In this document: positions 6,101-22,824 of the stretch, in pieces | How the letters are laid out: each line of letters begins with the position of its first letter | Position numbering within the stretch: position 1 is the stretch's first letter | Assembly: GCA_045538455.1 (NCBI GenBank) | Contig: JAZSRL010000009.1 | Coordinates: 14,875-78,874, forward strand | Direction of reading: 5' to 3' | Origin: Clostridia bacterium | Lineage (GTDB): Bacteria > Bacillota > Clostridia > Christensenellales > UBA1242 | DNA: 64,000 nt | Program-made: the position numbers and the translations under genes | The notes under the pieces: generated by a model | The model's database searches: none | Told to the model about the DNA's origin: nothing | The model's input: the letters and a program-made list of their open reading frames with translations, nothing else

Positions 6101-7873
6101 CTATAATTCAATGCCGAGTTCTTGTGCTGTTTGTTGGGTCTGCTTCCCTGCCATAGCTAAGATAGAGTTTTTCTCTGGTGAAGTTAAAACTTGGACTTCG
6201 GGCAAGAGATATTCGACACCCAAGAAATCATTTTGCTTTAAGTACGCAATCGCATCTTCCAAAGAGTTAGCATTGTTCAGCGTATCCACCATTTCTTCAA
6301 AAGTCGGTACTTGCACATACTGCATTTTATATTTGTTACACATCTCTAATGCTTGCTTTTTAATTTTATATAAATCCACGAGCGTGGCTTTTTGTCCGTT
6401 GGTTAAATAGTTCATGTGCGGTAAAAAGTCGCTCACCTGGTAATCGCAGCGGTCCATAATTTTTAAAACCGACGGAAAACTCTGGTCACATTGTTCTAAA
6501 TCCGTGATGCATTGTTGAAACAATACATGGCGGTCTGCTTGCGGCAAAGATTTATTTTCTTGTGCGATGCGCAGAATTAACTTTTGTTCATCTGTTAAAA
6601 ATTTTAATTGTGACACAATAGCAGCTGTGTGTTGATAGTCGTACTTTTCACAAATTATCATGACTTCTTTAAATTTGGTAGCATTGCTCAATTCACGCGC
6701 GACAACTTCTGGTGAAACCGGAACATGAATTTGCTTAGCTAAATCTAACTTTTTTTGTTCGCGTAAAAAATTGAAATCGTTTTTACGCAACATAGATTCG
6801 CGTAGCATATTTTTGGATAATTTTTTATGTCCGTAGCTGTTGATAATAGACTTAAAATCACTGGTGAATTCCTGCCAATAATCATTGGGAAGATACTTGT
6901 CTGCTTGGAAATTTTGAAGACTATTTTCCACGCCTTTACACAAAGCCCATGCCATCATCTGCGAAACACAATCGGCATTAGACGAACGATGTGGCACATC
7001 GTCAATGATGGTCGGCTGTAAATTCCAATCGTGGTCTCTGGCAGTAACTGCAATCATATGGTCATTATTTTTGCGATTTGGTTGATTGCTGTCAAAAAAA
7101 GTATTAACTAAACCGCTGGAAATAATTTGAATACTCTGCGCCGTAGCTTTATCGTTTGTGCTGCCATAAAAAGTTCCTGGTGCGTCTTGATGCAAATGAA
7201 TACCGTTTAGCTGGTCAAATTGACTTTCGGTGATGACACCACCAAATCTCAGCGCGTAAAGATGCCTCATACCGACAACACCATCATGTTGGCTAAGCAC
7301 GCGTACGCTAGGAATGCGGTTATACATGACATTTTCGGGAGCATATGACACTTCTAAACTCGCACGGTTAATCGCATAGATTTCATCCGCTTCATAACCG
7401 ACATCGGCCAATTTTTGATTTAAAGTGCCAATCACTTTGACTAATTCTTGATTACCCGCGCAGAAGGTAAAGAAAGTAATCCGCGACATGTTTTGCTTGG
7501 CTTGCTGTAAATTCAAGCGTTGCCCCCTACCATCGACCAGCAATGAAAATATGCCATTCGCAATTTGTTCCACCGCCGATTCATCCAGGCAACCGATATT
7601 TTTTGATAATCGAGCATATTTAACCCCTAGAATATCAACATGGTCAAAAAGATGATAATCTTGTTTGGGCGTAAACATCAAACCCAAATAATTTTCCACC
7701 ATTTTGGCTAAACCATTCGCATCTTCATTTGTCAAAGTGGCATTTCCGGAAAAACACAAAACTGTTGGTTTTTCAAATTTTAAATTGTCTAAATCAAGTA
7801 ATTCCCAATGGTTTTCGGCATTTAAATTGCGTTTCCCAATTTCCACGGTTGATTGATTGTTTTCTTGTGTCAT
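6101..7873 (-). CDS. hypothetical protein, paralog A (shared ~340-aa N-domain plus three C-terminal repeats)
   Basis: 590 aa with no TM segment or signal peptide. The N-terminal ~340 aa are colinear with the 23040-24143 product (VEIGKRNLNAENHWELLDL..., NADCVSQMMAWALCKGVENSLQNFQA). It ends in ...ELGIEL. Confidence 0.75.
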   Translation of the reverse strand: MTQENNQSTVEIGKRNLNAENHWELLDLDNLKFEKPTVLCFSGNATLTNEDANGLAKMVENYLGLMFTPKQDYHLFDHVDILGVKYARLSKNIGCLDESAVEQIANGIFSLLVDGRGQRLNLQQAKQNMSRITFFTFCAGNQELVKVIGTLNQKLADVGYEADEIYAINRASLEVSYAPENVMYNRIPSVRVLSQHDGVVGMRHLYALRFGGVITESQFDQLNGIHLHQDAPGTFYGSTNDKATAQSIQIISSGLVNTFFDSNQPNRKNNDHMIAVTARDHDWNLQPTIIDDVPHRSSNADCVSQMMAWALCKGVENSLQNFQADKYLPNDYWQEFTSDFKSIINSYGHKKLSKNMLRESMLRKNDFNFLREQKKLDLAKQIHVPVSPEVVARELSNATKFKEVMIICEKYDYQHTAAIVSQLKFLTDEQKLILRIAQENKSLPQADRHVLFQQCITDLEQCDQSFPSVLKIMDRCDYQVSDFLPHMNYLTNGQKATLVDLYKIKKQALEMCNKYKMQYVQVPTFEEMVDTLNNANSLEDAIAYLKQNDFLGVEYLLPEVQVLTSPEKNSILAMAGKQTQQTAQELGIEL

Positions 7874-9048: not shown

Positions 9049-9123
9049 TGGCAGGGGTAGCAGGATTCGAACCTACGAATGCGAGAGTCAAAGTCTCGTG
9101 CCTTACCGCTTGGCGACACCCCT
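9049..9123 (-). tRNA. tRNA-Gln (anticodon UUG)
   Basis: The reverse complement is AGGGGTGTCGCCAAGCGGTAAGGCACGAGACTTTGACTCTCG...GTAGGTTCGAATCCTGCTACCCCTGCCA. The anticodon loop is CTTTGAC. Confidence 0.9.
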
Positions 9124-9263: not shown

Positions 9264-9337
9264 AGGGGTATGGCCAAGCGGTAAGGCAAATGGCTCTGAC
9301 CCATTGATCGTAGGTTCGAATCCTGCTACCCCTGCCA
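9264..9337 (+). tRNA. tRNA-Gln (anticodon CUG)
   Basis: AGGGGTATGGCCAAGCGGTAAGGCAAATGGCTCTGACCCATT...GTAGGTTCGAATCCTGCTACCCCTGCCA. The anticodon loop is CTCTGAC. Confidence 0.9.
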
Positions 9338-9570: not shown

Positions 9571-11025
9571 TTATTTTATTCTTTGGTATTCGACAAGCCC
9601 TAACAAGTATAAAAAAGCTGGTGCGGGAATCTTATAAATACTTTTGTTCCCGTATTTGAACTCACCAAAATCGTTAGCCCTTTTTGTTATTATAATTCCT
9701 GGAAGCATATCATTGCCTTCTGTGACAATCGCATCACCTTCTGTAATTTTAGATTGTTCTCGATATTTTACTTCAATTAAAATTGATGGAACCTTAATAG
9801 ATTTAACAACAATATCAATTTCTTTTTCTTTCTTATCACCACGGTAATATCCTATTTGGGTGTTGTCATTATAATAAAATGATTTTATATGCTTATAAAC
9901 TGCAGTCTCAGCGATAACGCCCAATTCGTCTGGGTCATTTGTTATATCATCTTTTAGTAATACTGCATTTCGCATTGCAGCATCTGCTATATAAATTTTG
10001 TTTTGTCCTTTTAGAACTTGCTTTGGGCCAGTGCTAATTGAAGGACTAACATAAATCAAATTTGCACTTTCGAGATATTCAATATATTTATCAATTGTAT
10101 TTCTGCTAACCCCATCAAGTTCTTTTGAAATTGTAGCAATATTAATTATGTTGGAAGATGTATAGCAAAGATACAAGAATAATTTTTCAATATCAGTAAT
10201 ATTCCTAATGCCATAGATTGAAGGCAAATCTCTTTTTAAGGCTTTGTCAACAATGTCTTCCCTTAGAATTCGTTGGGCATAAATATCGTCATGGCTTAAA
10301 GCTAGTTCAGGGAAACCTCCAACTTGTAAATACCTTATAAAGTGCACCTGCAAACAAGAAAGTTTATTAAAAATATCAGTTTGTTCCTGTTTTGATTTTT
10401 GATACAATTGGGTAGGTTTTACAACCTGAGATAACGCGGGAACTGAAATATTTAATAATTGACAATACTCATAAAAGGATAATGTAGGTACATGGATAAT
10501 TGTCCATCTGCCTAATCCACTTTCGGAAACCTTATCTTTTAAAATTGGACTTGCTGACCCTGTTGCCATTATGTGCATATGGGGATTAGTATCATATAAG
10601 ATTTTTAACCATTTATTCCATTCTGAGGCATATTGAATTTCATCAAAAAAACAATATATTTCACTGTCTGATGAAATATTGCTACGATATATTTCAATTA
10701 CCTTATCGATTGAACATAATTTCAACAAAGGATGGTCAAAAGAAACAAATATTATGTTTTTAGGAGAAATACCATCATTAATCAATTTATCAATTGTCTG
10801 ATACATAACAGTTGTTTTGCCTGTTCTTCTTGCACCACATAAAATTACGGAACGTCTAATATCGGTCTTTAACATTGTTCTTATTGCTTCGTAATAAGCA
10901 AATCTTTTCATCTCCTTAATGAATTCTTTTTGTACCACACCTGTTTGCCACCATGGATTATAAGAAAACAGCAAGTTTAAAACATTTTCACTGGTTGCTA
11001 ATTCCAAATTACACTCCTTTAACAA
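9571..11025 (-). CDS. AAA+ ATPase (AAA_14/DUF4143-type)
   Basis: 484 aa with Walker A GARRTGKTT, Walker B-like YCFFDEIQY and the N-terminal NPWW motif common in this family. Confidence 0.75.
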   Translation of the reverse strand: MLKECNLELATSENVLNLLFSYNPWWQTGVVQKEFIKEMKRFAYYEAIRTMLKTDIRRSVILCGARRTGKTTVMYQTIDKLINDGISPKNIIFVSFDHPLLKLCSIDKVIEIYRSNISSDSEIYCFFDEIQYASEWNKWLKILYDTNPHMHIMATGSASPILKDKVSESGLGRWTIIHVPTLSFYEYCQLLNISVPALSQVVKPTQLYQKSKQEQTDIFNKLSCLQVHFIRYLQVGGFPELALSHDDIYAQRILREDIVDKALKRDLPSIYGIRNITDIEKLFLYLCYTSSNIINIATISKELDGVSRNTIDKYIEYLESANLIYVSPSISTGPKQVLKGQNKIYIADAAMRNAVLLKDDITNDPDELGVIAETAVYKHIKSFYYNDNTQIGYYRGDKKEKEIDIVVKSIKVPSILIEVKYREQSKITEGDAIVTEGNDMLPGIIITKRANDFGEFKYGNKSIYKIPAPAFLYLLGLVEYQRIK

Positions 11026-12235: not shown

Positions 12236-13054
12236 CTAGTAATAAAAAGTTCGTTCAACATTTTTTACTCTAACTCCATTGATGTATGATATAGAATAAA
12301 CTTGATGATAGTGGGTAAGTCCCATTTCTTCAGCAAGTTCTTTTCCAAAGTATTTATCAGTATTAACAATAACTTTAACATCATCAGTGATTGGCAAGTT
12401 TCTACTTGTTGAAATAAGTTTCATTCCATAATCATAGTGTGAATACATCACTCCATCTTGCATAAAGAATTCGTGTTTTTCAGATTTACAGATATAGTTC
12501 TTTATTCCTTCGTAGTTATAAATTTTTTGTACGTCTACACTGGTTCCAAGTGTCCAATGATTTTGCACCCATGGTCTCGTGAATTCTCTTGGAGTATTGT
12601 TACCTTTAAAGAAAAGTATTAAGTGAGCATGTTTATATAAATCTTCGCTTAATTCTAATCTTCTAATGTAGGCAAAATAATTATCGAAATTGTAAGAGAC
12701 TTTATCTAAAAATGATTTAACTTGTTTATCTAATTCATTAAAGGTTAAATCTTTATTATCAGTGGTTAATGTTACATAAAGCATTGGATAACTTGTATCA
12801 ACAAATGTTAGTGTGCGTTCCCAACCTCTCAGTTGTCTTTTTACATTGCGTTTTAATGAATATAGTTGGTCTTTTTTTCGACAATGATAGCCACCCATAC
12901 CATCGGGTAAGTATGAGGCGTACTTGAATTTTTTTCTTTCCGTCATAATTCTTGCACCCTCAATAATGTAATGCCGATATTCTTGTATCGCCTCTGGTAA
13001 AATATATAAATTAAAATAATTTGAATTTTCTAATACGTTTAAATTAGTTTGCAT
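12236..13054 (-). CDS. HUH-type rolling-circle replication initiator / relaxase-like protein
   Basis: 272 aa with the three RCR motifs in order: MLYVTLTTDN (motif I, xLTLT-like), KHAHLILFF (HUH) and NYICKSEKH (YxxK). Confidence 0.55.
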   Translation of the reverse strand: MQTNLNVLENSNYFNLYILPEAIQEYRHYIIEGARIMTERKKFKYASYLPDGMGGYHCRKKDQLYSLKRNVKRQLRGWERTLTFVDTSYPMLYVTLTTDNKDLTFNELDKQVKSFLDKVSYNFDNYFAYIRRLELSEDLYKHAHLILFFKGNNTPREFTRPWVQNHWTLGTSVDVQKIYNYEGIKNYICKSEKHEFFMQDGVMYSHYDYGMKLISTSRNLPITDDVKVIVNTDKYFGKELAEEMGLTHYHQVYSISYINGVRVKNVERTFYY

Positions 13055-13432
13055 AATTTACATCTCCTGGTTATCTTATAAAATCTAAATTTTTTGCATA
13101 TTAAAGTATGCTCATCGCTTACGATGATTTTTTATTGACAGCCTGAACAATAATCTTTTGTTATTGTCCCAATATTTTTAAAACCAAGTGTTACGGTTCA
13201 GTTAATAAAATTATTGATATTCCCATAATTTTCTCCTTTTGTTTTTTTCTCTATATCAATATACAGTTTGTCTTATGCTAACTTTGAGTTAATGGGGGTT
13301 TACCCCATGTTTTTGCATAAAAAAATGTTAAAAAACCATTAAAAATTAGTTTCCCTATTATATATTACAGTATTTGTTCAAAAAACTGATTTTGGCACCG
13401 GTCACAATGATTAAATCTTGATTTTTAGCAAT

Positions 13433-13474
13433 AAAAAAGAGCCTTAATCAAATTTCGATTTTAAGGCTCTTTTT
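13433..13474. terminator. bidirectional rho-independent terminator
   Basis: AAAAAAGAGCCTTAA-(13 nt)-TTAAGGCTCTTTTT: a 10-bp stem flanked by an A-run and a T-run. Confidence 0.7.
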
Positions 13475-13510
13475 ATAATTTATGTAATTTGTATCAAGTG
13501 AACTGATTCT

Positions 13511-13536
13511 GTTGGTCCTGGTCAATTTGGTGGACT
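13511..13536 (+). repeat. direct repeat, copy 1 (GTTGGTCCTGGTCAATTTGGTGGACT)
   Basis: 23 of 26 positions match copy 2 at 16377-16402. Both copies lie about 35-40 nt after a terminator hairpin and an ATAATTTA string. Confidence 0.75.
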
Positions 13537-13553: not shown

Positions 13554-13853
13554 TCAATTTTCATAAAGATTCAAAATGGCATCTTTTTGTCTTGATGTTA
13601 GTTTAGAGAAATAGTCAATTAAAGTTTTATCTTTTTGATAAGCCAGTAAATCACGGTGAAAAAATTCTTCGGGGGTGCTGTTACAACATTCAATAATTTG
13701 CATCAACATATTAATCGGTGGATCAAATTGTAAACTTTCTATTTTGTTAATGTAGCAATCATTTTTGCCTAAACGCAAAGACAATTCCCGTGCAGATAAA
13801 TTGGCTCTATCTCTAATTTGTTTGATTCTTATCACAATTTCTTTTTTATCCAT
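13554..13853 (-). CDS. XRE-family helix-turn-helix regulator
   Basis: 99 aa. IKQIRDRANLSARELSLRLGKNDCYINKIES is a classic HTH_3 pattern. It is divergent from the methyltransferase gene. Confidence 0.7.
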   Translation of the reverse strand: MDKKEIVIRIKQIRDRANLSARELSLRLGKNDCYINKIESLQFDPPINMLMQIIECCNSTPEEFFHRDLLAYQKDKTLIDYFSKLTSRQKDAILNLYEN

Positions 13854-14078
13854 AGCTACCTCTGTTTTGTTTACTAATATTATAAATTCCGCTCTGTTTA
13901 TAGGTTGTGATAATTACTGCGTAATTTTACTTAATAATCATAAATCTATGGATTATTACTTTTGAATAGGAAATTTATTTGACCTTATAATCAATATTTT
14001 TTATATTTGTATTATAAATATTGACTTTTAAGGATAAACAATCTAAAAAGTTGATTTAATCATCACAAAGGATTTTGA

Positions 14079-15176
14079 ATGGAAAAACAACAAAAGGTTT
14101 TGAATAAAATTAAATACGACAGTGGGCAGAAAACACCATTGGGAACTGTGCCAAATGACGAATGTTATACATCGATGCAAGACATTGTTAATGAGCTTTC
14201 GTATTGGGCAGATAAATTTAAAAACAAAAATATTATTTGTCCTTGTGATTGGGATATTGTTGATGATGAAGACGGTATTTATTCTTTAAGAATCGATTTT
14301 GATAAAGACGAAATGCACGGACATACAAACACGGTTAAATCTGTAAGATGTTTATACATTAAAGATGTGGATAATACTGAATCGAAAGAAATTCCTAAGG
14401 ATAAAGTTGATGAATTTTTAAGCAAGCGCTTAAAATGTAATTTTGTTCGGACCTTTGTGGAACATGCTAAAGAATGGCAAATTAAAAGTATTACCGCTAG
14501 TGGATACAATCCCGCAACCGGGAAAGGAATTCGGTTCCAAGAAGTTGATTTTACACAATATGATATTTGTGTAACTAATCCACCATTTAGCGCATATAAA
14601 AATGGCTTATTTCTAAATACCCTGCTAAATAGCAAAATTGATTTTATTGTACTAGCTCCATTTTTAAATAGAACAAATCCATGTGTTGGATTGCCCTTAA
14701 TGCTAAAAACATGTTATTTAGGTTATGGAAGACATTTAAGTTTAAATTTTTACAATCCAACTGAAAACAATCAATTTAAAACTAAAACAGTTGCAGTCGA
14801 TTGGCTCACTTCGTTTTCTGATGCACAAGATGAAATAAACAAACAACAACTTCGTAACGGATTCAAATATGAGAATTACAAAAACGATTTTACTGCAATG
14901 AAGAATATGACTATGAAAGATGGAACTCACCCTATAAGGGCTGATAAATTTAGTGGAATACCTGATGATTACTTCGGTTGGATTTTCTGTTCGGTTGGCG
15001 TGTTAGATGTTTTGAGTAATGATGAATTTGAGTGGCACATTACCAATGCCAAAGGTTATTACAACAAAGTCAATCCAAGTGCTAATCCATTTGCTCATCG
15101 AGCATCAAACGAAATGGTTTCAAATCCAGGAGAAAAAAGTTTTCACGGTGTAGTAATAAGGAGAATAAAAAAATGA
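14079..15176 (+). CDS. N6-adenine DNA methyltransferase (EcoRI-methylase-like family)
   Basis: 365 aa with catalytic motif IV ICVTNPPFS and N-terminal NDECYTS...NIICPCDWD, which resembles that family (from memory). The stop overlaps the next start (ATGA). Confidence 0.65.
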   Translation: MEKQQKVLNKIKYDSGQKTPLGTVPNDECYTSMQDIVNELSYWADKFKNKNIICPCDWDIVDDEDGIYSLRIDFDKDEMHGHTNTVKSVRCLYIKDVDNTESKEIPKDKVDEFLSKRLKCNFVRTFVEHAKEWQIKSITASGYNPATGKGIRFQEVDFTQYDICVTNPPFSAYKNGLFLNTLLNSKIDFIVLAPFLNRTNPCVGLPLMLKTCYLGYGRHLSLNFYNPTENNQFKTKTVAVDWLTSFSDAQDEINKQQLRNGFKYENYKNDFTAMKNMTMKDGTHPIRADKFSGIPDDYFGWIFCSVGVLDVLSNDEFEWHITNAKGYYNKVNPSANPFAHRASNEMVSNPGEKSFHGVVIRRIKK

Positions 15177-16297
15177 AAAAAACAGTTAAAGAAATTTTTG
15201 AAATGATTAGTAGTGGAAAATTACATTATGACCAATCCACACAACGCAAATTTATTTATTACACAGAGAATCAAAACACAGAAGATGGTCAAATGACACG
15301 AGCCGGAAATGTGATACGCTCAATCTTACAATTTGACATTCAGTTACCTGCTCTTTATTTTTGGGACCTTGGTAATGATGAATACAATATTCATGATGGA
15401 AAACAAAGGGTTTTAAGTCTTTATTATTTTTGTAATCCGACTAGAGAAATTAATGTAGTAACCAGAATCAATGGACGAGAAACAACATTTATTGGATTAA
15501 CCCAAGAACAAAAAGATAAACTTCTGAATTACACTTTTGATATAGTGGTTAAACAAGGAAGTCAGGACCAAGAAGAAGTTTCATTTTACATGATAAATAC
15601 AAACTCATTAGCTTTAACACCATACGAAAGTTTACGAGGTATGTTCCATGGAACCTGGATTTACGAATTTGAACAGTTTATAGAAGAAAAAGCAAGGGTT
15701 ATTGATAATATCAAAAAAATCGGGCGTGGCGAACAAGCAATTCAGTTTTTGTATAATTGCTTTGACTTACTTGGAGATAGAATGGCGCCAAACAAGATTC
15801 GAACACATCTAAGAGATGTACGAAATACTTCTTTTGATGCCAATACTTACAAACTAAATGAAATCCTTGAAGTTTATTCTGAATTCATTAAAATTACATC
15901 AGTTGATAGCGAAAAAGCATTAATGGTAGCAAGTTTTATTGTCAACAAGGGTTGGGATAAAGATTCAATTCTTGATTATTACCGAAAAATCATGAGAAAT
16001 GCAAATGATGTTAAAAAATGGAAAATTGAAACCCATAAAACTGCAATTACCAAATTAATTCAAGATAACATTGAATGCGATGGTAAACGATTATTTAATG
16101 ACGAAGATAAAAGTTCTCTATATCGTCGCTCACAAAAATGTGCAGGTGCAAATTGCACGGTTACAAATTATAAAGAACTAGAAGTTGACCATATTACACC
16201 TTGGAGCAAAGGCGGTAGAACTATTTTAGATAATGCCCGATTGCTTTGCAAATCACACAATGCCAGCAAGGGCGACGACGATGGAATTAAAGGTTAA
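15173..16297 (+). CDS. DUF262 (ParB-like NTPase) - HNH nuclease fusion
   Basis: 374 aa. The N-terminal part has QRKFIY and HDGKQRV (a DGQQR-like DUF262 signature). The C-terminus EVDHITPWSKGGRTILDNARLLCKSHNASKG is an HNH motif. Confidence 0.75.
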   Translation: MKKTVKEIFEMISSGKLHYDQSTQRKFIYYTENQNTEDGQMTRAGNVIRSILQFDIQLPALYFWDLGNDEYNIHDGKQRVLSLYYFCNPTREINVVTRINGRETTFIGLTQEQKDKLLNYTFDIVVKQGSQDQEEVSFYMINTNSLALTPYESLRGMFHGTWIYEFEQFIEEKARVIDNIKKIGRGEQAIQFLYNCFDLLGDRMAPNKIRTHLRDVRNTSFDANTYKLNEILEVYSEFIKITSVDSEKALMVASFIVNKGWDKDSILDYYRKIMRNANDVKKWKIETHKTAITKLIQDNIECDGKRLFNDEDKSSLYRRSQKCAGANCTVTNYKELEVDHITPWSKGGRTILDNARLLCKSHNASKGDDDGIKG

Positions 16298-16313
16298 TAA
16301 TTAACTCAACAAT

Positions 16314-16349
16314 AAAAAAGAACCCCAGGTTTTAATTCTGGGGTTTTTT
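16314..16349 (+). terminator. rho-independent terminator
   Basis: AACCCCAG-(9 nt)-CTGGGGTT followed by TTTT. Confidence 0.75.
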
Positions 16350-16376
16350 GCATAATTTACCAATCCAAGCATATCC

Positions 16377-16402
16377 GTTGGTCCTGGTTGATTTGGTGGG
16401 CT
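16377..16402 (+). repeat. direct repeat, copy 2 (GTTGGTCCTGGTTGATTTGGTGGGCT)
   Basis: See copy 1. The two copies are 2866 bp apart. Confidence 0.75.
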
Positions 16403-16449
16403 TAAAACAGCGTTTTTATTAGAAAATATGCCGTAAGGGTGAAATTTGT

Positions 16450-16478
16450 TTGACTAAAACGGGATTCTCATGTATAAT
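16450..16478 (+). promoter_or_regulatory. sigma-70-type promoter (TTGACT-17 nt-TATAAT)
   Basis: Near-consensus -35 and -10 boxes with a 17-nt spacer, about 18 nt upstream of the riboswitch P1 helix. Confidence 0.6.
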
Positions 16479-16494
16479 GAAAATACAATTAAAT

Positions 16495-16646
16495 AGCTAT
16501 CAAGAGTGTTAGATGTTAAGGGACCAGCCCAATGCTAACCAGCAACCTGTCGGGAAAGACAAGGTGCTAAAACTGAGTGATAGGCGTAAACCATTTTACG
16601 AATCATGTTTTCCTTCGGCTCTATCACTCTTGGTAGGGTTTTTTAA
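16495..16646 (+). promoter_or_regulatory. SAM-I (S-box) riboswitch aptamer plus expression platform
   Basis: The aptamer (~16495-16585) has the conserved strings in order: CTATCAAGAG ... GGGACCAGCCCAATG ... CCAGCAACC ... AAGGTGCTAA ... GAGTGATAG. Downstream, CTATCACTCTTGGTAG can pair with either P1 strand and is followed by GGTTTTTT. Confidence 0.7.
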
Positions 16647-16663
16647 TTGTTAAGGAGGAAAAT

Positions 16664-17188
16664 ATGAAAGACACTTATGAAAAATTTTTACAACTGGAAA
16701 AGGAAGACAATCTGACCGAACAAAGAATCTTGGAACATTTGAACTGCTCCAAAGTTAAGGCACGGATGTTGTATCAACAACTCATTCGCAAAAAAATTAT
16801 TGTCAAAGGCAAAGTGGTTAACCCAGAAGAATTTCGCGGATGGGGATTAGCATTTTTAGTTTATGATGAGTACGCCGAAATTGAAGTCGGGCTGGAATCC
16901 ATCATTGACAATGTTTTAATCGATGACGAAAAATTTATTCGTTTAATTCACAACAAAGTTGACCCTGCTTTCCGTAAGGAACTTTCGTCTGAAATGCGTA
17001 AAAACACGCTTAAAATTTTATTAGGACTAGGCGAAGACCAAAAATACTTAATTTATCAACTAGCCGTTCAAGCGCTGGCAGAATCGCTACGAACCAGTAA
17101 GGATTTAATCGCACCGCAAGATACCCCCGAAGAATTGCCTGATGCAGATGGAGTTGTAATTACGTTGGATATGCCCAAAGGGAAATAA
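16664..17188 (+). CDS. hypothetical protein downstream of the SAM riboswitch
   Basis: 174 aa with a strong RBS (AAGGAGG). The N-terminal ~50 aa look winged-helix-like. No catalytic motif recognised. Confidence 0.6.
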   Translation: MKDTYEKFLQLEKEDNLTEQRILEHLNCSKVKARMLYQQLIRKKIIVKGKVVNPEEFRGWGLAFLVYDEYAEIEVGLESIIDNVLIDDEKFIRLIHNKVDPAFRKELSSEMRKNTLKILLGLGEDQKYLIYQLAVQALAESLRTSKDLIAPQDTPEELPDADGVVITLDMPKGK

Positions 17189-17373: not shown

Positions 17374-17940
17374 ATGAGATTTATTAAAGAAAAATTAAAT
17401 GAAAATAAATTATTTGAAACAGGTCTTGCAAGACTTTGGCAACATACCAAAGATACATCTACTTTTGCAATTATTGGTACACAAGACCAAGATACTAAAG
17501 AAAGTAGATACAATGACATGATGGACTTAATTTTGAAATTATCAAGAAAGAAAGCAGGCATTGGATTTAATAATATAGATGGGTTATACACTTATGATAA
17601 TGGACAACAAGGTCGTGAAGATTCTATCATTATTTATAATCTATCCAAGGAAGATGCTCTTGATATTGGTAGAAAACTAAATCAAGAAAGTATTGTTTGG
17701 AAAGATGACAGTTTCTTTGGGTTAATTTATTGTAAAGATGGCAGTGTTGATATGACCTTTAAGAATAACTTAAAAAATATGAAGTTCAGTGAAGAAGATA
17801 TAAAAAATTTTGCTTCAAAGATTGCTGGCAAAGGTCATGCCAAGAATGCACCATTTGTTTTTGAATCATATTTCAGAGAATATAATAAACAAATTCACAA
17901 AGCTGAAAACCATCTTATTTTTAGATGTAAATGTAATTAA
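17374..17940 (+). CDS. hypothetical protein (first of the small-gene series)
   Basis: 188-aa ORF starting MRFIKEKL. Its TAA stop is part of the conserved junction 18-mer. Confidence 0.55.
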   Translation: MRFIKEKLNENKLFETGLARLWQHTKDTSTFAIIGTQDQDTKESRYNDMMDLILKLSRKKAGIGFNNIDGLYTYDNGQQGREDSIIIYNLSKEDALDIGRKLNQESIVWKDDSFFGLIYCKDGSVDMTFKNNLKNMKFSEEDIKNFASKIAGKGHAKNAPFVFESYFREYNKQIHKAENHLIFRCKCN

Positions 17941-17955
17941 GGAGATAAATTAAAG

Positions 17956-18297
17956 ATGAAATTGATTAAAGAAGAATTGCTAATGGAAATGTCTAACTTA
18001 TTACCAAGAAGAACTGGGTTACCTTATTCAGTCTGGGTAGATGATGCTGGCATGGATAGAGAAGTTTCACATAATATCCTTAGATTGAAATATGGCCCAT
18101 CATATGATGATTGTGTTACAATTCCGTTTTTTGATAAAAAAGATTTATATGAAGCTATTGGTGAGCTTAAAAAAGGCAAACTAAATATGAAGCAAATATC
18201 CAAGTGGATAAATCTTAATTATACTAATCTAATTAAATTTTATACTAATGCTGATTATGACTTTAAGGATTTTATAGATAATATGAAAACTATTTAA
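17956..18297 (+). CDS. hypothetical protein
   Basis: 113-aa ORF starting MKLIKEEL, preceded by the conserved junction. Confidence 0.55.
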   Translation: MKLIKEELLMEMSNLLPRRTGLPYSVWVDDAGMDREVSHNILRLKYGPSYDDCVTIPFFDKKDLYEAIGELKKGKLNMKQISKWINLNYTNLIKFYTNADYDFKDFIDNMKTI

Positions 18298-18348
18298 AGT
18301 AAGTGTAGAATTATAATTATATATCAATCATAAGGAGATAAATTAAAG

Positions 18349-18717
18349 GTGGGATTTATTAAAGAACACAGTTTAATTGAACAAGCTCATATTGCTGATA
18401 TAAACGAAAAGGAAGTAATTGTTTATACTCGTGAAGGTGGTAATATCCCTCACATTCATATTTTAAATCCACAAGATAAAACATTTGAATGTTGTGTGCG
18501 ATTGGATAAGGCTGAATATTTTTGTCATGGTAATAAGCAAAATACACTGAATACAAAAGACAAAAAAGAATTTGTTGCATGTATGAATAAATCAACTAAA
18601 ACTAGAGTTGGTCATTTTACAAATTGGGAAATAGCGGTACTGATTTGGAATCAAGGAAATTCTCAAGCACAAATCTCTGATGAAATTAAAATGCCTAATT
18701 ATTTACAATTAAAATAA
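18349..18717 (+). CDS. hypothetical protein (GTG start)
   Basis: 122-aa ORF starting (M)GFIKEHS, preceded by the conserved junction. GNIPHIHI weakly recalls the DUF4160 PPHFH motif. Confidence 0.5.
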   Translation: MGFIKEHSLIEQAHIADINEKEVIVYTREGGNIPHIHILNPQDKTFECCVRLDKAEYFCHGNKQNTLNTKDKKEFVACMNKSTKTRVGHFTNWEIAVLIWNQGNSQAQISDEIKMPNYLQLK

Positions 18718-18739
18718 TAAATAAGGAGATAAATTAAAG

Positions 18740-19207
18740 ATGAAATTTTTATTAGTAGAACAAGCTTTGTCTATTAGGGAAATTAAAAGACAATTAGATG
18801 GGTTAGGAAAAAACCTGCGTTTACATTTAATTAAATTATTCATTTGGCGAGATGTAGTTAATACCAGTGACTACTGGGAAGATGAGGTAGTTGGCATGAT
18901 TGATGACTTGCCTTATGTAAAGGGGTCTAAAAAATTCCCTAAAACTTCTGTAATCTACAACAGCATTTGGGGTAACTACAAAGATAGTTTTAATACAAAA
19001 CTGCCTAACACTATAAAGAGGTTAATGTATGATTACTCAAGTTTTCCTAAAATTACTATAGAAGATATTTCAGTGGATAATTTATTTACATTTTGTGAAG
19101 AGTATTGTTTATGGTTATCTGAGTATTTATCAAAATATGGTAGTCTAGATGTAGAAGAAGCTCACAACAGGTTAATAGGACTCTTAAAGAAATACCCTAT
19201 AAAATAA
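18740..19207 (+). CDS. hypothetical protein
   Basis: 155-aa ORF starting MKFLLVEQ, preceded by the conserved junction. Confidence 0.55.
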   Translation: MKFLLVEQALSIREIKRQLDGLGKNLRLHLIKLFIWRDVVNTSDYWEDEVVGMIDDLPYVKGSKKFPKTSVIYNSIWGNYKDSFNTKLPNTIKRLMYDYSSFPKITIEDISVDNLFTFCEEYCLWLSEYLSKYGSLDVEEAHNRLIGLLKKYPIK

Positions 19208-19222
19208 GGAGATAAATTAAAG

Positions 19223-19647
19223 ATGATACAAGAAATAATTACAGATGAAGAAATCTTAGGTCAACGTTCAGATGAAATTGATAATGGAGAAACTTATGCA
19301 GAAAAATAACTTACAACAATTAGTTGTTGTCAAAAGTTGAGTTCGTAAAAATAGTCAAATTGAGCCCAACGACAACAAATGAACAGCAATTAAAGAAAAC
19401 AAAGTAGCAAAAGAAATCATTCAACTGCTGATAGATGAATTAGATAAAAATTATAATGATGAGGAGAAAAATACAAATGACAACAAATAGTAAAACAAAT
19501 TATGCAGTAGCAGACTGCAATGAAAATAATAAGCAAATTTATAAATCCCCTGAAGACGAATTGATGGAAAATATTATAAACATTTTTAATTCCTGACTTG
19601 AAAAACTTGCCGAACATTATGATATAAAGGAGAAAACCAATGAATAA
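19223..19647 (+). pseudogene. short ORFs interrupted only by frame change and TGA codons (decayed genes, or genes that originated under a TGA=Trp code)
   Basis: 19223-19309 encodes 28 aa behind the conserved junction. The ORF from the ATG at 19272 has in-frame TGAs at 19338 and 19380 and ends with TAG at 19488. The ORF from the ATG at 19477 has an in-frame TGA at 19594 and ends with TAA at 19645-19647, overlapping the recombinase ATG at 19640. Confidence 0.4.
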
Positions 19648-21358
19648 CAACGAAACAATTACAAGAGCTGTTGCCTATTGCAGGTTTAGTAGCCACAATC
19701 AAAGAGAAGAAAGTATTGATGCTCAACTAAGAGCAATTCACGAATATGCACGACAAAACAATATGGTCATCATTAAAGCATATTGCGACAGTGCTATCAG
19801 CGGAACAGGTAGTGCTGACCGTAAACAATTCCAACAAATGATTTCTGATGCTGGCAAAAGAGAATTTACTAAGGTCATTGTTCATAAATTGGACCGCTTT
19901 GCCAGAAATCGTAATGATTCTTTTGGTTATAAATTAGAACTCAAAAAACATGGTGTTGATGTAGTTTCCGTTTTGGAACACATTGATGACAGTCCTGAAG
20001 GCTTTTTAATGGAAGGTCTTTTGGATATGTTAGCCGATTTCTATTCAAGAAACTTGGGTCGTGAAGTTATCAAAGGCATGAAAGAAAATGCCTACAAATC
20101 TAAATTCAATGGCAGTCGCCCACCTTTGGGTTACTGCCTTGTCCCACGAAAAGATGAATATGGCAATTTGGTATTAAGCCAAAGAACGGGTACCGAACTG
20201 CACGATTTAGCCATTGATAAGGAAAAGGCAATTATCATTAAAAAGATTTTTGATATGGTACTTGAACGCAAAACTTATCCTGAAATTGTTGCCTATTTGA
20301 AAGAAAACGATTATAAGACAAACTCTAATAAGGATTTTACCTACGAAGATTTGTTGAGAATTTTACGCAACGAAAGGTATACGGGTACTTACATCTTTAA
20401 TCGTCGTAAAAAGATTATTGGTAAAAATGGTCGCTATACTTATGACCGCACCAATGCCGAAGAAACTATTAAAAACGAAAATGCGTTTCCTGCCATTGTT
20501 TCCCGCGAACAATTTAATGCTGTGCAAAAACTTTTGGATTCGCGTGTTAGGAAAACACCAGGATTAAGAATTGTTGATTATTTACTTGCTGGTAAAATTA
20601 TTTGTGGTGAATGCGGGCATCCTTTTAGCGGAGAAAGAAAACGCAAGAACTTTGCCGATGGTACAACTTATTGGATTTACTATCGCTGCAAAAGCAATCA
20701 CAACAAAACAGATAAACTAACAACCAAAGCCAATTGTCATAATAGCAGTATCCGCAAAGATGAAATTGAAGCCTTTGTGTTACAACAAATTACTGACTTA
20801 ATTTTCAGCGAAAAGAACTTTGACAAGATTTTTGAATTTTATCAAAACTATAAAACAGAACTTTTGTCTAACGAACATGCTACTTCGGCGATTGAAAAAG
20901 AAATCAGCAACATTGAAAAGAAAATTCAAAACCTTTACAATGCCATTGCTGACATGGGTTACACCGAACAAATCAAATTGCAAATTTCTGGTTACGAAAA
21001 GAAGAAATTAGACTTAACGGAAAAACTTGCCGAAGCCAAATCTTTTCAACTACCAACGATTAACAAAGACAAATTGAAAGCATCTTACGATAAATTCAAA
21101 TACGAATTTCAAAACAACATATTGCCAAACAACAAAGATTTGGTTGATATTTTCTTAAACAAAGTTGTGGTTTATAAAGACCATGTCGAAGTTTATCTCA
21201 ATGTGTTGCCTGCACTGAAATGTGAAGACTATGGCTTAGAGATTGACTTAAACCTATTAAAAAGCGAAGAGGACGGAGAAAATCCATCCTCTTTGTTGTT
21301 TTTATCCCCAGAACGTGTATCTGCAGGCTCTAACTCTGCCAACACAAACTTAATTTGA
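19640..21358 (+). CDS. large serine recombinase (integrase)
   Basis: 572 aa with an N-terminal resolvase domain (AVAYCRFSSHNQREESIDAQ, VHKLDRFARN), a recombinase domain, a zinc ribbon (CGECGHPF...YYRC) and a C-terminal coiled coil. Confidence 0.9.
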   Translation: MNNNETITRAVAYCRFSSHNQREESIDAQLRAIHEYARQNNMVIIKAYCDSAISGTGSADRKQFQQMISDAGKREFTKVIVHKLDRFARNRNDSFGYKLELKKHGVDVVSVLEHIDDSPEGFLMEGLLDMLADFYSRNLGREVIKGMKENAYKSKFNGSRPPLGYCLVPRKDEYGNLVLSQRTGTELHDLAIDKEKAIIIKKIFDMVLERKTYPEIVAYLKENDYKTNSNKDFTYEDLLRILRNERYTGTYIFNRRKKIIGKNGRYTYDRTNAEETIKNENAFPAIVSREQFNAVQKLLDSRVRKTPGLRIVDYLLAGKIICGECGHPFSGERKRKNFADGTTYWIYYRCKSNHNKTDKLTTKANCHNSSIRKDEIEAFVLQQITDLIFSEKNFDKIFEFYQNYKTELLSNEHATSAIEKEISNIEKKIQNLYNAIADMGYTEQIKLQISGYEKKKLDLTEKLAEAKSFQLPTINKDKLKASYDKFKYEFQNNILPNNKDLVDIFLNKVVVYKDHVEVYLNVLPALKCEDYGLEIDLNLLKSEEDGENPSSLLFLSPERVSAGSNSANTNLI

Positions 21359-21417: not shown

Positions 21418-22824
21418 TTACAGTTTTTCACAAGTAGTCTTGTTATCTTTTGATGTTTGGTTTAAGGCATTAATTTTAACCAAAGCAACCTGGAAAAATT
21501 TTCTAATCTGTTCTGAACGCTCAGAATCGTACTTTAAATTTTCTTTTTCGGTTAAATCACAAAAATATTTGTTATCCAATGTTTTTCTAACTTGATCAAA
21601 AGCATTGAATTTAGGAATGCCATTTTCATTTTTAATTGATGTAAAAACAAAAGTTCCTTCATCAAAACTGGCACTATGAACCAGTTTGTTTCCGTCCATC
21701 AAAGCGACTCCGTCAAAATAATGTGCCGGACTTTCTCCGTTTTCGCAGTTTTGTGCCACCAGACTACGCCAGTACTCAACCATAGCAGCATCTGATAATT
21801 CTTCTTTGCCAAATGGTCTGCGGATATGTAAATTGGGTTGGAGGTTCTCGGGTAGTTTTTCAATGTGCATACCCATATCCCAAGCAAAAGTCGGCATACC
21901 ACTAAGCTGACTTAATGCCGCTGCTTTGATAATCGCATTTTCAACCGCTGTCGTTCCATTTTCCTCGACATTAAGTTTCAAACCAAGTTCTTTCGGGGTA
22001 TGGAAATTTATGCCTAATCCATTGGCAGCCATTTTAATAAACTCGATTTTATGTTTATTATTGGTTGCAAGTAAAATATCCATGCGGAAATCTTTCTCGT
22101 GATTGATATTTGTTTTTGGGAATGTCGATTTTTTTGTTGGTTGATAATCCTGTCTGACTAAATCAATACGGCCCGGTTCTTCGCAAACTTTATGCTTTCT
22201 GGATTTGATGCGATTGATTTTGCAATACTCTTCTTTAAATTTATCCGGTTGCTTTAAGAGATTTCGCATATCGACAAGAAATTTTTTATAAACCTCATCT
22301 TCATAAAACATATTTTCTGGATTATCTTCACTGTACTTTTTCGCTAGTCTTTTAATTGTATAGTCCAAATAATCTTCAATGTTCATTTCGGGCATTCTTT
22401 CATGTGCCACAAAAAAGCTACGAATGAAAACAATTTCTATTGATGTGTTACGATCTGCTGACGATATCAGTTTACCATAAGGCGACCGTGGGTTATCTTC
22501 CTTCGACGAACGATGATCCTCAATCGCTTCTTTAATGATTAAGCGTTGTTCGTCATTAAAAAAATTGGACATATTTTTATCTTCAAAAAACATTTGACCA
22601 GCAATTAAATGATGTTGCTCATGGTCAAGATACTTTCCTAAATCATGGTACGAAGCTATCGCATAAAGCATATTCTCATCAAGGTTTAATTGAAATGTTT
22701 GATTCAAAACAAAACATCTTCTAATTACTTCTTTGATGTGAACAATATTATGCCCCAAATCGTTTTTTTCGTATAATGGCAAAATATTTTTGATAATATA
22801 ATTTTCCAAAAGCTGATTAACCAT
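21418..22824 (-). CDS. HD phosphohydrolase - Ham1/ITPase-like (non-canonical NTP pyrophosphatase) fusion protein
   Basis: 468 aa. The N-half has HNIVH...SYHDLGK...EDHR (HD-domain metal ligands). The C-half has ILLATNNKHKIEF and VEENGTTAVENAIIKA...GMPTFAWDMG (RdgB/Ham1 pattern). Confidence 0.6.
   Translation of the reverse strand: MVNQLLENYIIKNILPLYEKNDLGHNIVHIKEVIRRCFVLNQTFQLNLDENMLYAIASYHDLGKYLDHEQHHLIAGQMFFEDKNMSNFFNDEQRLIIKEAIEDHRSSKEDNPRSPYGKLISSADRNTSIEIVFIRSFFVAHERMPEMNIEDYLDYTIKRLAKKYSEDNPENMFYEDEVYKKFLVDMRNLLKQPDKFKEEYCKINRIKSRKHKVCEEPGRIDLVRQDYQPTKKSTFPKTNINHEKDFRMDILLATNNKHKIEFIKMAANGLGINFHTPKELGLKLNVEENGTTAVENAIIKAAALSQLSGMPTFAWDMGMHIEKLPENLQPNLHIRRPFGKEELSDAAMVEYWRSLVAQNCENGESPAHYFDGVALMDGNKLVHSASFDEGTFVFTSIKNENGIPKFNAFDQVRKTLDNKYFCDLTEKENLKYDSERSEQIRKFFQVALVKINALNQTSKDNKTTCEKL

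Follow-up and report, generated by a model that had tools for sequence, protein, structure and literature searches.

In textbooks, SAM (S-adenosylmethionine) riboswitches exert feedback control over the genes of methionine, cysteine and SAM; what, then, would one of them regulate inside a mobile element? The question is raised by a 64,000-nucleotide (nt) stretch of contig JAZSRL010000009.1 of a Clostridia bacterium (positions 14,875 to 78,874; the whole stretch is called the window, and positions are counted from its first letter), where a leader RNA with the marks of a SAM aptamer precedes a gene for a 174-amino-acid (aa) protein within a horizontally acquired integrative element. A reading made earlier from the letters alone (the original prediction) had taken the leader for a SAM-I riboswitch, could not work out its ON/OFF logic and had suggested a tie to the methyltransferase module next to it. 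We consider it likely that a captured SAM-sensing OFF riboswitch of the SAM-I/SAM-IV/SAM-I/IV clan lies behind a strong promoter and leads the backbone operon in a family of small integrative elements of gut Clostridia. The riboswitch clan, the ligand class and the attenuation mechanism are known ones; the hybrid architecture of the aptamer and the non-metabolic regulon are unusual.

The first step is to establish that the RNA is an aptamer and to which class it belongs. A scan of the whole window with 4227 Rfam families at their gathering thresholds returned three tRNAs and one riboswitch. The riboswitch is matched best by RF01725 (SAM-I/IV), whose cut-off of 41.1 bits it passes with 50.3 (E = 2.9e-5 for the 64 kb and 4227 families, 1.5e-7 locally), and the S-box strings AUCAAGAG, GCAACC and AAGGUGCUAA are all present. 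The SAM-I model RF00162, hidden by clan competition until the hairpin 3' of the aptamer core was trimmed, gives 37.6 bits on 16494-16586, below its cut-off of 44.4, because 3 nt replace 21 model positions of the internal stem P4. Hence, the class is not canonical SAM-I. The cassette occurs at 10 loci, which form two clades. The same leader is found in all contigs that encode close relatives of the 174-aa protein (L001, L002, L003, L007 and, partially, L004), the hosts of these relatives being metagenome-assembled genomes of gut Clostridia; gut samples such as SRR32918225 carry the element. In L005 and L093 the promoter-to-AUG cassette stands before an extra gene of 328 or 424 aa that is followed by the 174-aa gene. 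Two further contigs, L091 and L092, located by a search with the 328-aa protein of L005, carry a clearly divergent riboswitch. RF01725 gives 47.9 bits in L002; RF00162 gives 37.6-38.6 bits in L001, L005 and L007 and 31.5 in L003, all below 44.4, whereas the divergent copies of L091 and L092 pass the SAM-I model with 47.2 bits. The core is invariant in all eight aligned aptamers: the tandem A-U/U-A pairs of P1 beside the J1/2 segment AAGAG, and GCAACC and GGUGC in P3. In the model alignments, the pairs of P1 and the core strings of J1/2 and P3 fall on highly conserved consensus positions; the invariant positions we take, from the SAM-I crystal structures, to be those that contact SAM. Judged by covariance models and alignments, the aptamer is real and a member of clan CL00012.

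Within the clan, three classes have to be compared. As described, SAM-I has an internal P4, a kink-turn and the pseudoknot PK-1; SAM-IV has a P2 divided into P2a and P2b, PK-1, no P4, a 3' hairpin and a second pseudoknot, PK-2; and SAM-I/IV has an unsplit P2 and no PK-1 (PMC6890682). The window RNA shares with SAM-I (RF00162; leaders of met, cys and metK genes in Firmicutes) the binding-core strings, P1, P2, P3, the P2-loop pseudoknot PK-1 and a terminator/anti-terminator OFF platform. It differs from SAM-I in the absence of an internal P4, in a P2 internal loop that, by eye, does not read as a canonical kink-turn sequence and in its targets, genes of a mobile element and not met, cys or SAM genes. 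The internal loop between P2a and P2b is asymmetric, with strands of 7 nt and 4 nt; compared with the RF00162 model it contains 6 inserted nt, and by eye it lacks the tandem G-A/A-G signature; in the RF01725 alignment P2b is rendered as a loop insertion. With SAM-IV (RF00634, Actinobacteria) the RNA has in common the split P2, PK-1, the lack of an internal P4, the hairpin that follows P1 and a 3' tail that could pair with the P3 loop as a candidate PK-2. Unlike SAM-IV, it is AT-rich and SAM-I-like in sequence and its hosts are Clostridia; moreover, PK-2 is a candidate only, and RF00634 was never the best clan model for it, the RF00634 score being itself hidden by clan competition. SAM-I/IV (RF01725) is the best Rfam model, and it likewise lacks a P4 within the junction and has a hairpin following P1, but the window RNA has a split P2 and a covarying PK-1. 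The hairpin 3' of P1 shows pair-preserving changes among the copies, is longer in L005 and is missing in the L091/L092 clade. The candidate PK-2 would join 16609-16614 of the tail to the P3 loop 16552-16557 (GGGAAA:UUUCCU, 6/6) and, in the L091/L092 clade, CAAAA to UUUUG (5/5 in L092); its strands are of low complexity in both clades. The architecture is thus closest to SAM-IV as described in PMC6890682, and the RNA, by its alignments, is an intermediate within the clan, with SAM-I-like sequence, SAM-IV-like topology and its best score with SAM-I/IV. Such a combination is useful for understanding how the classes of the clan interconvert.

Loss of P4 and a sub-threshold SAM-I score could also mark a relic, that is, a captured metK-type leader that has lost SAM binding together with P4 and persists as a constitutive leader or attenuator. 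The other aptamers found by pattern scans precede metK, among them the P4-less examples from metagenomes, which differ in this from the window RNA. However, the transcribed leader is far more conserved than the synonymous sites: it is 92-99% identical between loci, against 38-80% at the four-fold synonymous sites of the adjacent gene, as, for example, between the window and L003 (96.6% versus 37.8%). Either selection constrains the RNA much more strongly than it does the gene, or elements exchange the cassette among themselves, and either argues for function. The stems tell the same. In the six near-identical leaders there is no double substitution, and so no power to detect covariation, and all the one-sided changes in stems keep the pairing; the test became informative only when L091 and L092 were added. 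Pair counts over the eight aptamers give 94.2% paired and five compensatory pairs, against none of the latter in six slid controls, and the covariation score exceeds those of 500 of 500 shuffles. The compensatory changes are C-G to U-A in P1, A-U to G-C in P2a, U-A to C-G in P3 and two of the three pairs of PK-1, which reads CAG:CUG in the window and CGA:UCG in L091 and L092. Thus P1, P2a, P3 and PK-1 have been kept by compensation and the core nucleotides are the same in every copy; furthermore, the natural P4-less classes SAM-IV and SAM-I/IV bind SAM (PMC6890682). A relic aptamer is therefore very improbable.

The second step concerns the expression platform. The promoter, the T-run, the strong ribosome-binding site (RBS) and the 174-aa open reading frame lie where the original prediction had put them, the promoter being the top match of the region with 11 of 12 consensus positions, and transcription would start near 16485. 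The prediction had also noted that 16621-16636 can pair with either strand of P1, which the letters bear out (9/9 for its 5' half and 7/7 for its 3' half), and had seen no hairpin at the T-run. The hairpin exists: a predicted intrinsic terminator abuts the T-run and was overlooked, since two of its pairs are G-U. A consensus scan found it independently (16617-16640; -9.3 kcal/mol), and a U-G pair is improved to U-A in L002 and L007. What had been described as a 9-bp hairpin 9 nt away from the T-run is the pairing of the segment's 5' half with 16575-16583, the anti-terminator. Once the terminator with its G-U pairs is recognised, the logic that had seemed unworkable becomes that of an ordinary OFF attenuator. 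The terminator stem CUAUCA/UGGUAG is a near-copy of P1 (CUAUCA/UGAUAG), and because of this the switching segment is able to pair with both P1 strands at once. The arrangement recurs in L091 and L092, where P1 reads (A)CUUAUC/GAUAAG(U) and the terminator, CCUUAUCU-loop-AGAUAAGG followed by six U (-11.0 kcal/mol), is again a copy of P1. This likeness follows from standard attenuator design and hence is not novel. By these pairings the platform is a classical SAM-OFF transcription attenuator, and OFF-logic transcription attenuation is the dominant riboswitch mechanism in Firmicutes (PMC2258182).

The computed energies, which exclude tertiary and ligand contributions, agree with such a switch. 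For the RNA that ends at the U-run, the aptamer with the terminator has -39.3 kcal/mol, the double clamp of both P1 strands by the switching segment -39.9 and a form with an alternative 12-bp helix (16497-16508:16625-16636), which is the ligand-free minimum-energy fold, -48.1. Ligand-free folds thus favour anti-terminated forms or tie with the terminated one, and from these energies read-through is predicted without ligand, and a SAM-locked P1 is predicted to let the terminator fold. In L091 and L092 the double clamp itself is the ligand-free fold of minimum energy, with additional pairing between J3/1 and the terminator loop. The 12-bp helix was itself considered as the terminator and rejected; beyond the part that copies P1 it is not kept in L091 and L092, and it is the local hairpin that abuts the U-run.

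The pyrimidine-rich tail of the aptamer adds a possible second layer. It pairs 14/14 with the RBS and AUG (16654-16667), stacking on the terminator, and in L091 and L092 an 8-bp anti-Shine-Dalgarno (anti-SD):SD helix, CUCCUUUU:AAAAGGAG, encloses the terminator. Such a helix would be a translational OFF layer for any full-length RNA in the aptamer conformation. The same tail is the candidate PK-2 strand, and the opposite sense can be imagined, in which the P3 loop, purine-rich and thus resembling an RBS, traps the tail as PK-2 in the SAM-bound fold, so that the real RBS of read-through transcripts is freed. The complementarity to both partners, seen in the window (6/6 and 14/14) and in L092 (5/5 and 8/8), would allow it. 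Nevertheless, a translational ON element is hardly credible: the terminator that copies P1 has been kept with covarying changes and imposes OFF logic before the RBS is reached, most SAM-bound transcripts would stop before the RBS is made, and a pseudoknot of 5-6 bp is unlikely to beat a helix of 14 bp.

Taking these pairings together, we propose the following OFF model. With SAM present, P1 would be locked, aided by PK-1 and possibly by PK-2; the terminator and its six U would fold and transcription would stop at about 16644, and in any full-length RNA the tail would also mask the RBS and AUG. With SAM scarce, the switching segment would invade P1, its 5' half taking the 3' strand of P1 and its 3' half the 5' strand, and would thereby block the terminator. 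The 5' end of the transcript would then pair with 16642-16650 to form a long-range helix, P0, which can form in read-through RNA only, closes the ON conformer and leaves the RBS free; in the divergent clade P0 is kept (7/7 in L092), with a change from U-A to C-G. Consequently, the 174-aa protein, the small cassette genes downstream and, most likely, the serine recombinase at the end of the element would be made at low SAM only. The regulatory and mobility programme of the element would thus be tied to the SAM/methionine status of the host, to a purpose that we infer only. If so, this would be a natural case of an element that reads the metabolic state of its host through an RNA in order to time its own programme.

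Several points weigh against this model. SAM binding and termination themselves are inferred from an anatomy that is directly visible and conserved between the clades. The window copy scores below the SAM-I cut-off and has no P4, for which PK-2 is only a candidate compensation. All the covariation comes from a single split between two clades, so that five compensatory pairs represent few independent events. For the full-length leader the ON and OFF energies are close (-45.8 and -54.4 versus -52.9 kcal/mol), and because of this closeness of the nearest-neighbour values the outcome must be kinetic. The roles of the tail as candidate PK-2 strand and as anti-SD strand compete, which leaves the translational layer ambiguous. 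Further downstream, internal promoters ahead of the recombinase are possible, and one candidate (19428-19457) is conserved in L002. Finally, Foldseek searches of PDB and BFVD with the model of the 174-aa protein gave nothing significant (best E = 0.4). With these points counted, there is strong support for an aptamer of the SAM clan that is conserved and structurally constrained, is coupled to a conserved OFF attenuator and stands at the head of a mobile-element operon unlinked to sulfur metabolism. The coordinates of the features are collected in Table 1.

Table 1. Features of the riboswitch locus and its neighbourhood in the window (HTH, helix-turn-helix; R-M, restriction-modification)
Feature	Position	Strand	Remarks
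cI-like HTH gene	13554-13853	-	
EcoRI-like methyltransferase	14079-15176		Variable cargo, type II R-M pair
DUF262/HNH endonuclease	15173-16297		Variable cargo, type II R-M pair
Upstream unit: terminator hairpin 16322-16350 and TGGT-rich box 16374-16402	16310-16402	+	Sequence, direct repeats D3/D16/D17, alignment with L001, L002, L007
Sigma-70-type promoter TTGACT-17-TATAAT	16450-16478	+	Consensus match; kept in A5, L091/L092
SAM-clan aptamer	16492-16616	+	RF01725 (SAM-I/IV) match above cut-off
Aptamer core overall	16497-16583	+	No internal P4
P1	16497-16502/16578-16583	+	Rfam alignments, pair counts
P2a	16508-16512/16535-16539	+	Rfam alignments, pair counts
P2b	16520-16522/16528-16530	+	Rfam alignments, pair counts
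P3	16541-16551/16558-16568	+	Rfam alignments, pair counts
Pseudoknot PK-1	16525-16527 (CAG) with 16573-16575 (CUG)	+	Rfam alignments, pair counts
Hairpin 3' of P1 (P4 of SAM-I/IV, P5 of SAM-IV)	16585-16600	+	CGUAAA-CCAU-UUUACG
Pyrimidine-rich tail	16603-16616	+	UCAUGUUUUCCUUC; anti-SD/anti-AUG strand and candidate PK-2 strand
Intrinsic terminator (predicted)	16618-16644	+	Stem 16618-16626/16631-16639 (core CUCUAUCA/UGGUAGGG), loop CUCU, U-run 16639-16644
Switching (anti-terminator) segment	16621-16636	+	16621-16629 with J3/1 and 3' P1 strand 16575-16583; 16630-16636 with 5' P1 strand 16497-16503
3' strand of long-range helix P0	16642-16650	+	Pairs 9/9 with transcript 5' end 16485-16493
RBS and start codon	16652-16666	+	AAGGAGG 16652-16658, ATG 16664-16666; block GGAGGAAAATATG kept even before another first gene (L005)
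174-aa protein gene	16664-17188	+	Predicted N-terminal winged helix ~1-52; long helix 54-83; helical bundle to ~149; disordered acidic tail
Small-gene array: 188, 113, 122, 155 aa and 28-aa stub	17374-19308	+	Each opens with RBS/start block AAATAAGGAGATAAATTAAAGATGA
Large serine recombinase (Resolvase, Recombinase, Zn_ribbon_recom)	19640-21358	+	PF00239 6.6e-30, PF07508 1.7e-23, PF13408 1.3e-14

The third step is what the riboswitch controls. The cassette is kept whole, from the promoter to the AUG, before first genes whose products differ in length: 174 aa for the window, 328 for L005, 145 for L091 and 303 for L092. In L091 and L092 the riboswitch heads genes of 145 or 303/422 aa, followed by a 175-aa member of the 174-aa family, 49-50% identical, and then by the recombinase. 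The constant partners of the riboswitch are the 174-aa family gene and the recombinase. The association with the riboswitch holds for homologues down to that identity and fails at about 25%: in the more distant relatives L051, L053, L055 and L056 neither a motif search nor a covariance scan found a SAM aptamer, and the layout of the element is the same. From this absence, the riboswitch would be a lineage-specific acquisition at a fixed position of the element. The 174-aa family is, as judged from these layouts, a backbone gene of small integrative elements.

The 174-aa protein itself belongs to no Pfam, PHROG, NCBIfam or PADLOC family. Only six close relatives were found among 5.8 billion clusters, and exhaustive and second profile searches enlarged the family to some 30 members, all without annotation. 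Searches of PDB with sequence profiles of the family gave no match, IMG/VR held no relative, and phage records matched neither the protein (tblastn) nor the element (megablast). An AF2 model built on a 34-sequence alignment, with a mean confidence (pLDDT) of 86.8, shows three helices and a beta-hairpin at the N-terminus (H-H-H-beta-hairpin); an earlier one from 7 sequences was unusable (pLDDT 43.5). Weak family matches (FtsK_gamma in 16 of 34 members, TrmB in 5 of 34) and the top, non-significant Foldseek ranks, occupied by MntR, DtxR and MarR, point to a predicted winged-helix protein of DNA-binding type. As the original prediction had it, no link of the gene to sulfur, methionine or SAM metabolism or transport was detected; neither the family, PDB and fold searches nor the prediction of membrane segments, of which the protein has none, indicated an enzyme or transporter of methionine, cysteine or SAM.

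Behind the 174-aa gene, the small genes are spaced by about 392 nt, encode proteins that begin with M[KRG][FL]IKE and share an identical RBS/start block. Their content and order vary (three are missing in L002, the order is 188-122-113 in L008 and two stand upstream of the riboswitch in L091), and the junctions between the loci (window, L002, L007, L008 and L091) fall at the repeated block, which looks like shuffling of cassettes by recombination. Filamentous-phage coat or morphogenesis genes and acidic DNA mimics were considered for the operon and ruled out, as its proteins are soluble and near-neutral. A consensus scan from the riboswitch to the end of the recombinase found no terminator-like hairpin on the plus strand in the window, L002 or L091, and in L091 a strong terminator follows the recombinase directly. 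The simplest reading of this arrangement is that a single SAM-gated transcription unit would extend through the recombinase. The recombinase slot is itself exchangeable: it holds a serine enzyme in the window, L002, L008, L091 and L092, a tyrosine integrase (13732-15147) followed by the Rep gene in L007, and only the remnant of a serine recombinase (7044-7202) in L001.

The island that carries the operon has a GC content of 28-33%, against about 38-46% outside, and runs from about a tRNA-Gln gene (9264-9337) to about 21365. These bounds rest on the low GC, on L001, whose positions 1-39 are the matching 3' end of tRNA-Gln joined directly to backbone sequence, and on L002 and L008, in which homology stops just past the recombinase stop codon; the flanks do not define the exact att sites. 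The tRNA-Gln gene suggests, from this junction, that it marks the end of the element although the recombinase is of the serine type. The shared backbone includes a Rep protein of the ORF2/G2P type, to which the initiators of rolling-circle replication in plectroviruses and inoviruses belong (12236-13054, minus strand, in the window; 15163-15978 in L007; 1836-2651 in L056), whose position and orientation differ between elements; tblastn against phage and plasmid records found no match for it. No coat-like or morphogenesis genes were recognised, and the element could be a satellite, an integrative mobilisable element or a defective single-stranded DNA prophage.

Does the riboswitch belong with the restriction-modification genes that precede it? 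The leader stands, as had been noticed, directly downstream of a type II methyltransferase/endonuclease pair, and also in L001 and L007 the cassette follows methyltransferase-containing cargo immediately. It might act as a safety device: when SAM is low and protection by the methyltransferase fails, the 174-aa protein, which resembles a DNA-binding regulator, would restrain the cognate endonuclease. The comparison of the copies makes this improbable. The cargo in L001 and L007 is a different one, an N6/N4 methyltransferase with a helicase, and no methyltransferase is among the called genes of L002, L005 and L092, which are short contigs, or of L091 (9.3 kb), all of which carry the cassette. 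Cargo varies between copies; the riboswitch and the 174-aa gene are constant, and the 174-aa family is backbone in related elements that have neither the restriction-modification genes nor the riboswitch. The hairpin 16322-16350, moreover, is a predicted terminator that ends the transcript of the cargo itself. The tie to the neighbouring methyltransferase put forward in the original prediction is given up for these reasons: from the cargo differences and the contigs with none called, the link is incidental and the adjacent genes are exchangeable cargo outside the circuit.

The island carries, near the tRNA-Gln gene at its left end, also a 484-aa AAA-type ATPase (9571-11025, minus strand) that matches the PADLOC candidate defence family PDC-S01 (E = 1e-64). 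With SAM as signal and defence genes as cargo, a fall in SAM, brought about by starvation or by a SAM-destroying phage enzyme, can be imagined as the induction switch of the element, which would de-repress the winged-helix regulator, the cassette array and the recombinase and lead to excision, transfer or a back-up anti-phage response; we hold this broad version to be doubtful. Its narrower form, a sensor of phage attack, is less probable still. According to it, phage enzymes that degrade SAM as a counter-defence against restriction-modification and BREX would collapse the SAM pool and so switch on escape by excision or a back-up function. The OFF logic would indeed turn the operon on upon SAM loss, the island holds a type II pair and the PDC-S01 candidate, and other copies hold methyltransferase and helicase cargo. 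The SAM lyase of phage T3 depletes SAM and defeats restriction-modification and BREX (PMC11580459), and PLE satellites with large serine recombinases are described as excising upon phage infection (PMC6002521). All this is circumstantial. Phages of these uncultured Clostridia are not known to encode a SAM lyase, plain methionine starvation would trip the switch just as well, the cassette proteins have no match among known families of defence or anti-defence, and several riboswitch-bearing copies have no defence cargo on the available contigs. If phage depletion of SAM were the natural trigger, riboswitch biology would be joined to the arms race of defence and counter-defence, and a defence-carrying island would have been made responsive to anti-defence, which is attractive and entirely circumstantial.

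Known systems offer partial parallels to the SAM-gated operon. Cyclic di-GMP-I riboswitches of the Clostridioides difficile prophages phiCD630-1 and -2 control an antitoxin RNA (PMC11477304), and SAM-IV matches were counted in 16 predicted Mycolicibacterium prophages in a survey that does not describe their targets or logic (PMC8190616). The C. difficile case resembles the present one in that a metabolite or second-messenger riboswitch on a mobile element serves non-metabolic functions of the element; here, by contrast, SAM would be the ligand, and a protein of winged-helix type and a recombinase are part of the unit. PLE-type satellites are likewise small integrative islands with a large serine recombinase, anti-phage cargo and a mobility programme induced by a specific intracellular cue (PMC6002521); that cue is a phage protein acting as directionality factor, whereas the one proposed here is a metabolite sensed by an RNA. 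PLE and the window element are not related in sequence, and no helper phage is known for the latter. Limited literature searches returned engineered theophylline switches and no natural riboswitch-controlled recombinase. IMG/VR gave no copy of the cassette, the general SAM-core pattern matching there mostly coding DNA by chance and metK leaders, and a pattern scan of metagenomes found metK-type leaders only and no further cassette copies.

Upstream of the promoter, two units of about 110 nt in the same orientation (13429-13536 and 16310-16402) bracket the HTH gene and the restriction-modification cargo. Each consists of a bidirectional terminator hairpin and a box, GTTGGTCCTGGTYRATTTGGTGGRCT, with three TGGT motifs (13508-13536 in the left-hand unit); the right-hand unit recurs in L001, L002, L005 and L007, where it closely precedes the riboswitch promoter. 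The unit could be a site of cargo exchange, an iteron set or an operator. Separately, a motif, GTGAAATTTRTTTKAC, overlaps the -35 element in both clades (16433-16455 in the window, 4678-4693 in L091 and 221-236 in L092) and may be the operator of a second, protein-based layer of control on the riboswitch promoter.

Some minor observations on the elements and their surroundings are added. At the left edge of the island two divergent tRNA-Gln genes are found, 9049-9123 on the minus strand and 9264-9337 on the plus strand, with the anticodons UUG and CUG. In the riboswitch-less relatives L053 (13757-13828, minus strand) and L055 (13782-13853, minus strand) the serine recombinase gene shares its 3' end with a tRNA gene of the opposite strand, which points to an element that inserts into a tRNA gene and restores the end of that gene. 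In L056 (5036-5572) and L057 (4510-5046) the deposited product of the family gene has 178 aa and the table-11 open reading frame 168 aa; the mismatch could mean that translation starts at another codon or that this host uses an alternative genetic code. Just outside the right end of the island, a 468-aa protein (21418-22824, minus strand) combines an HD-type N-terminal region with a Ham1/RdgB-like non-canonical nucleoside triphosphate pyrophosphatase, both by weak NCBIfam matches.

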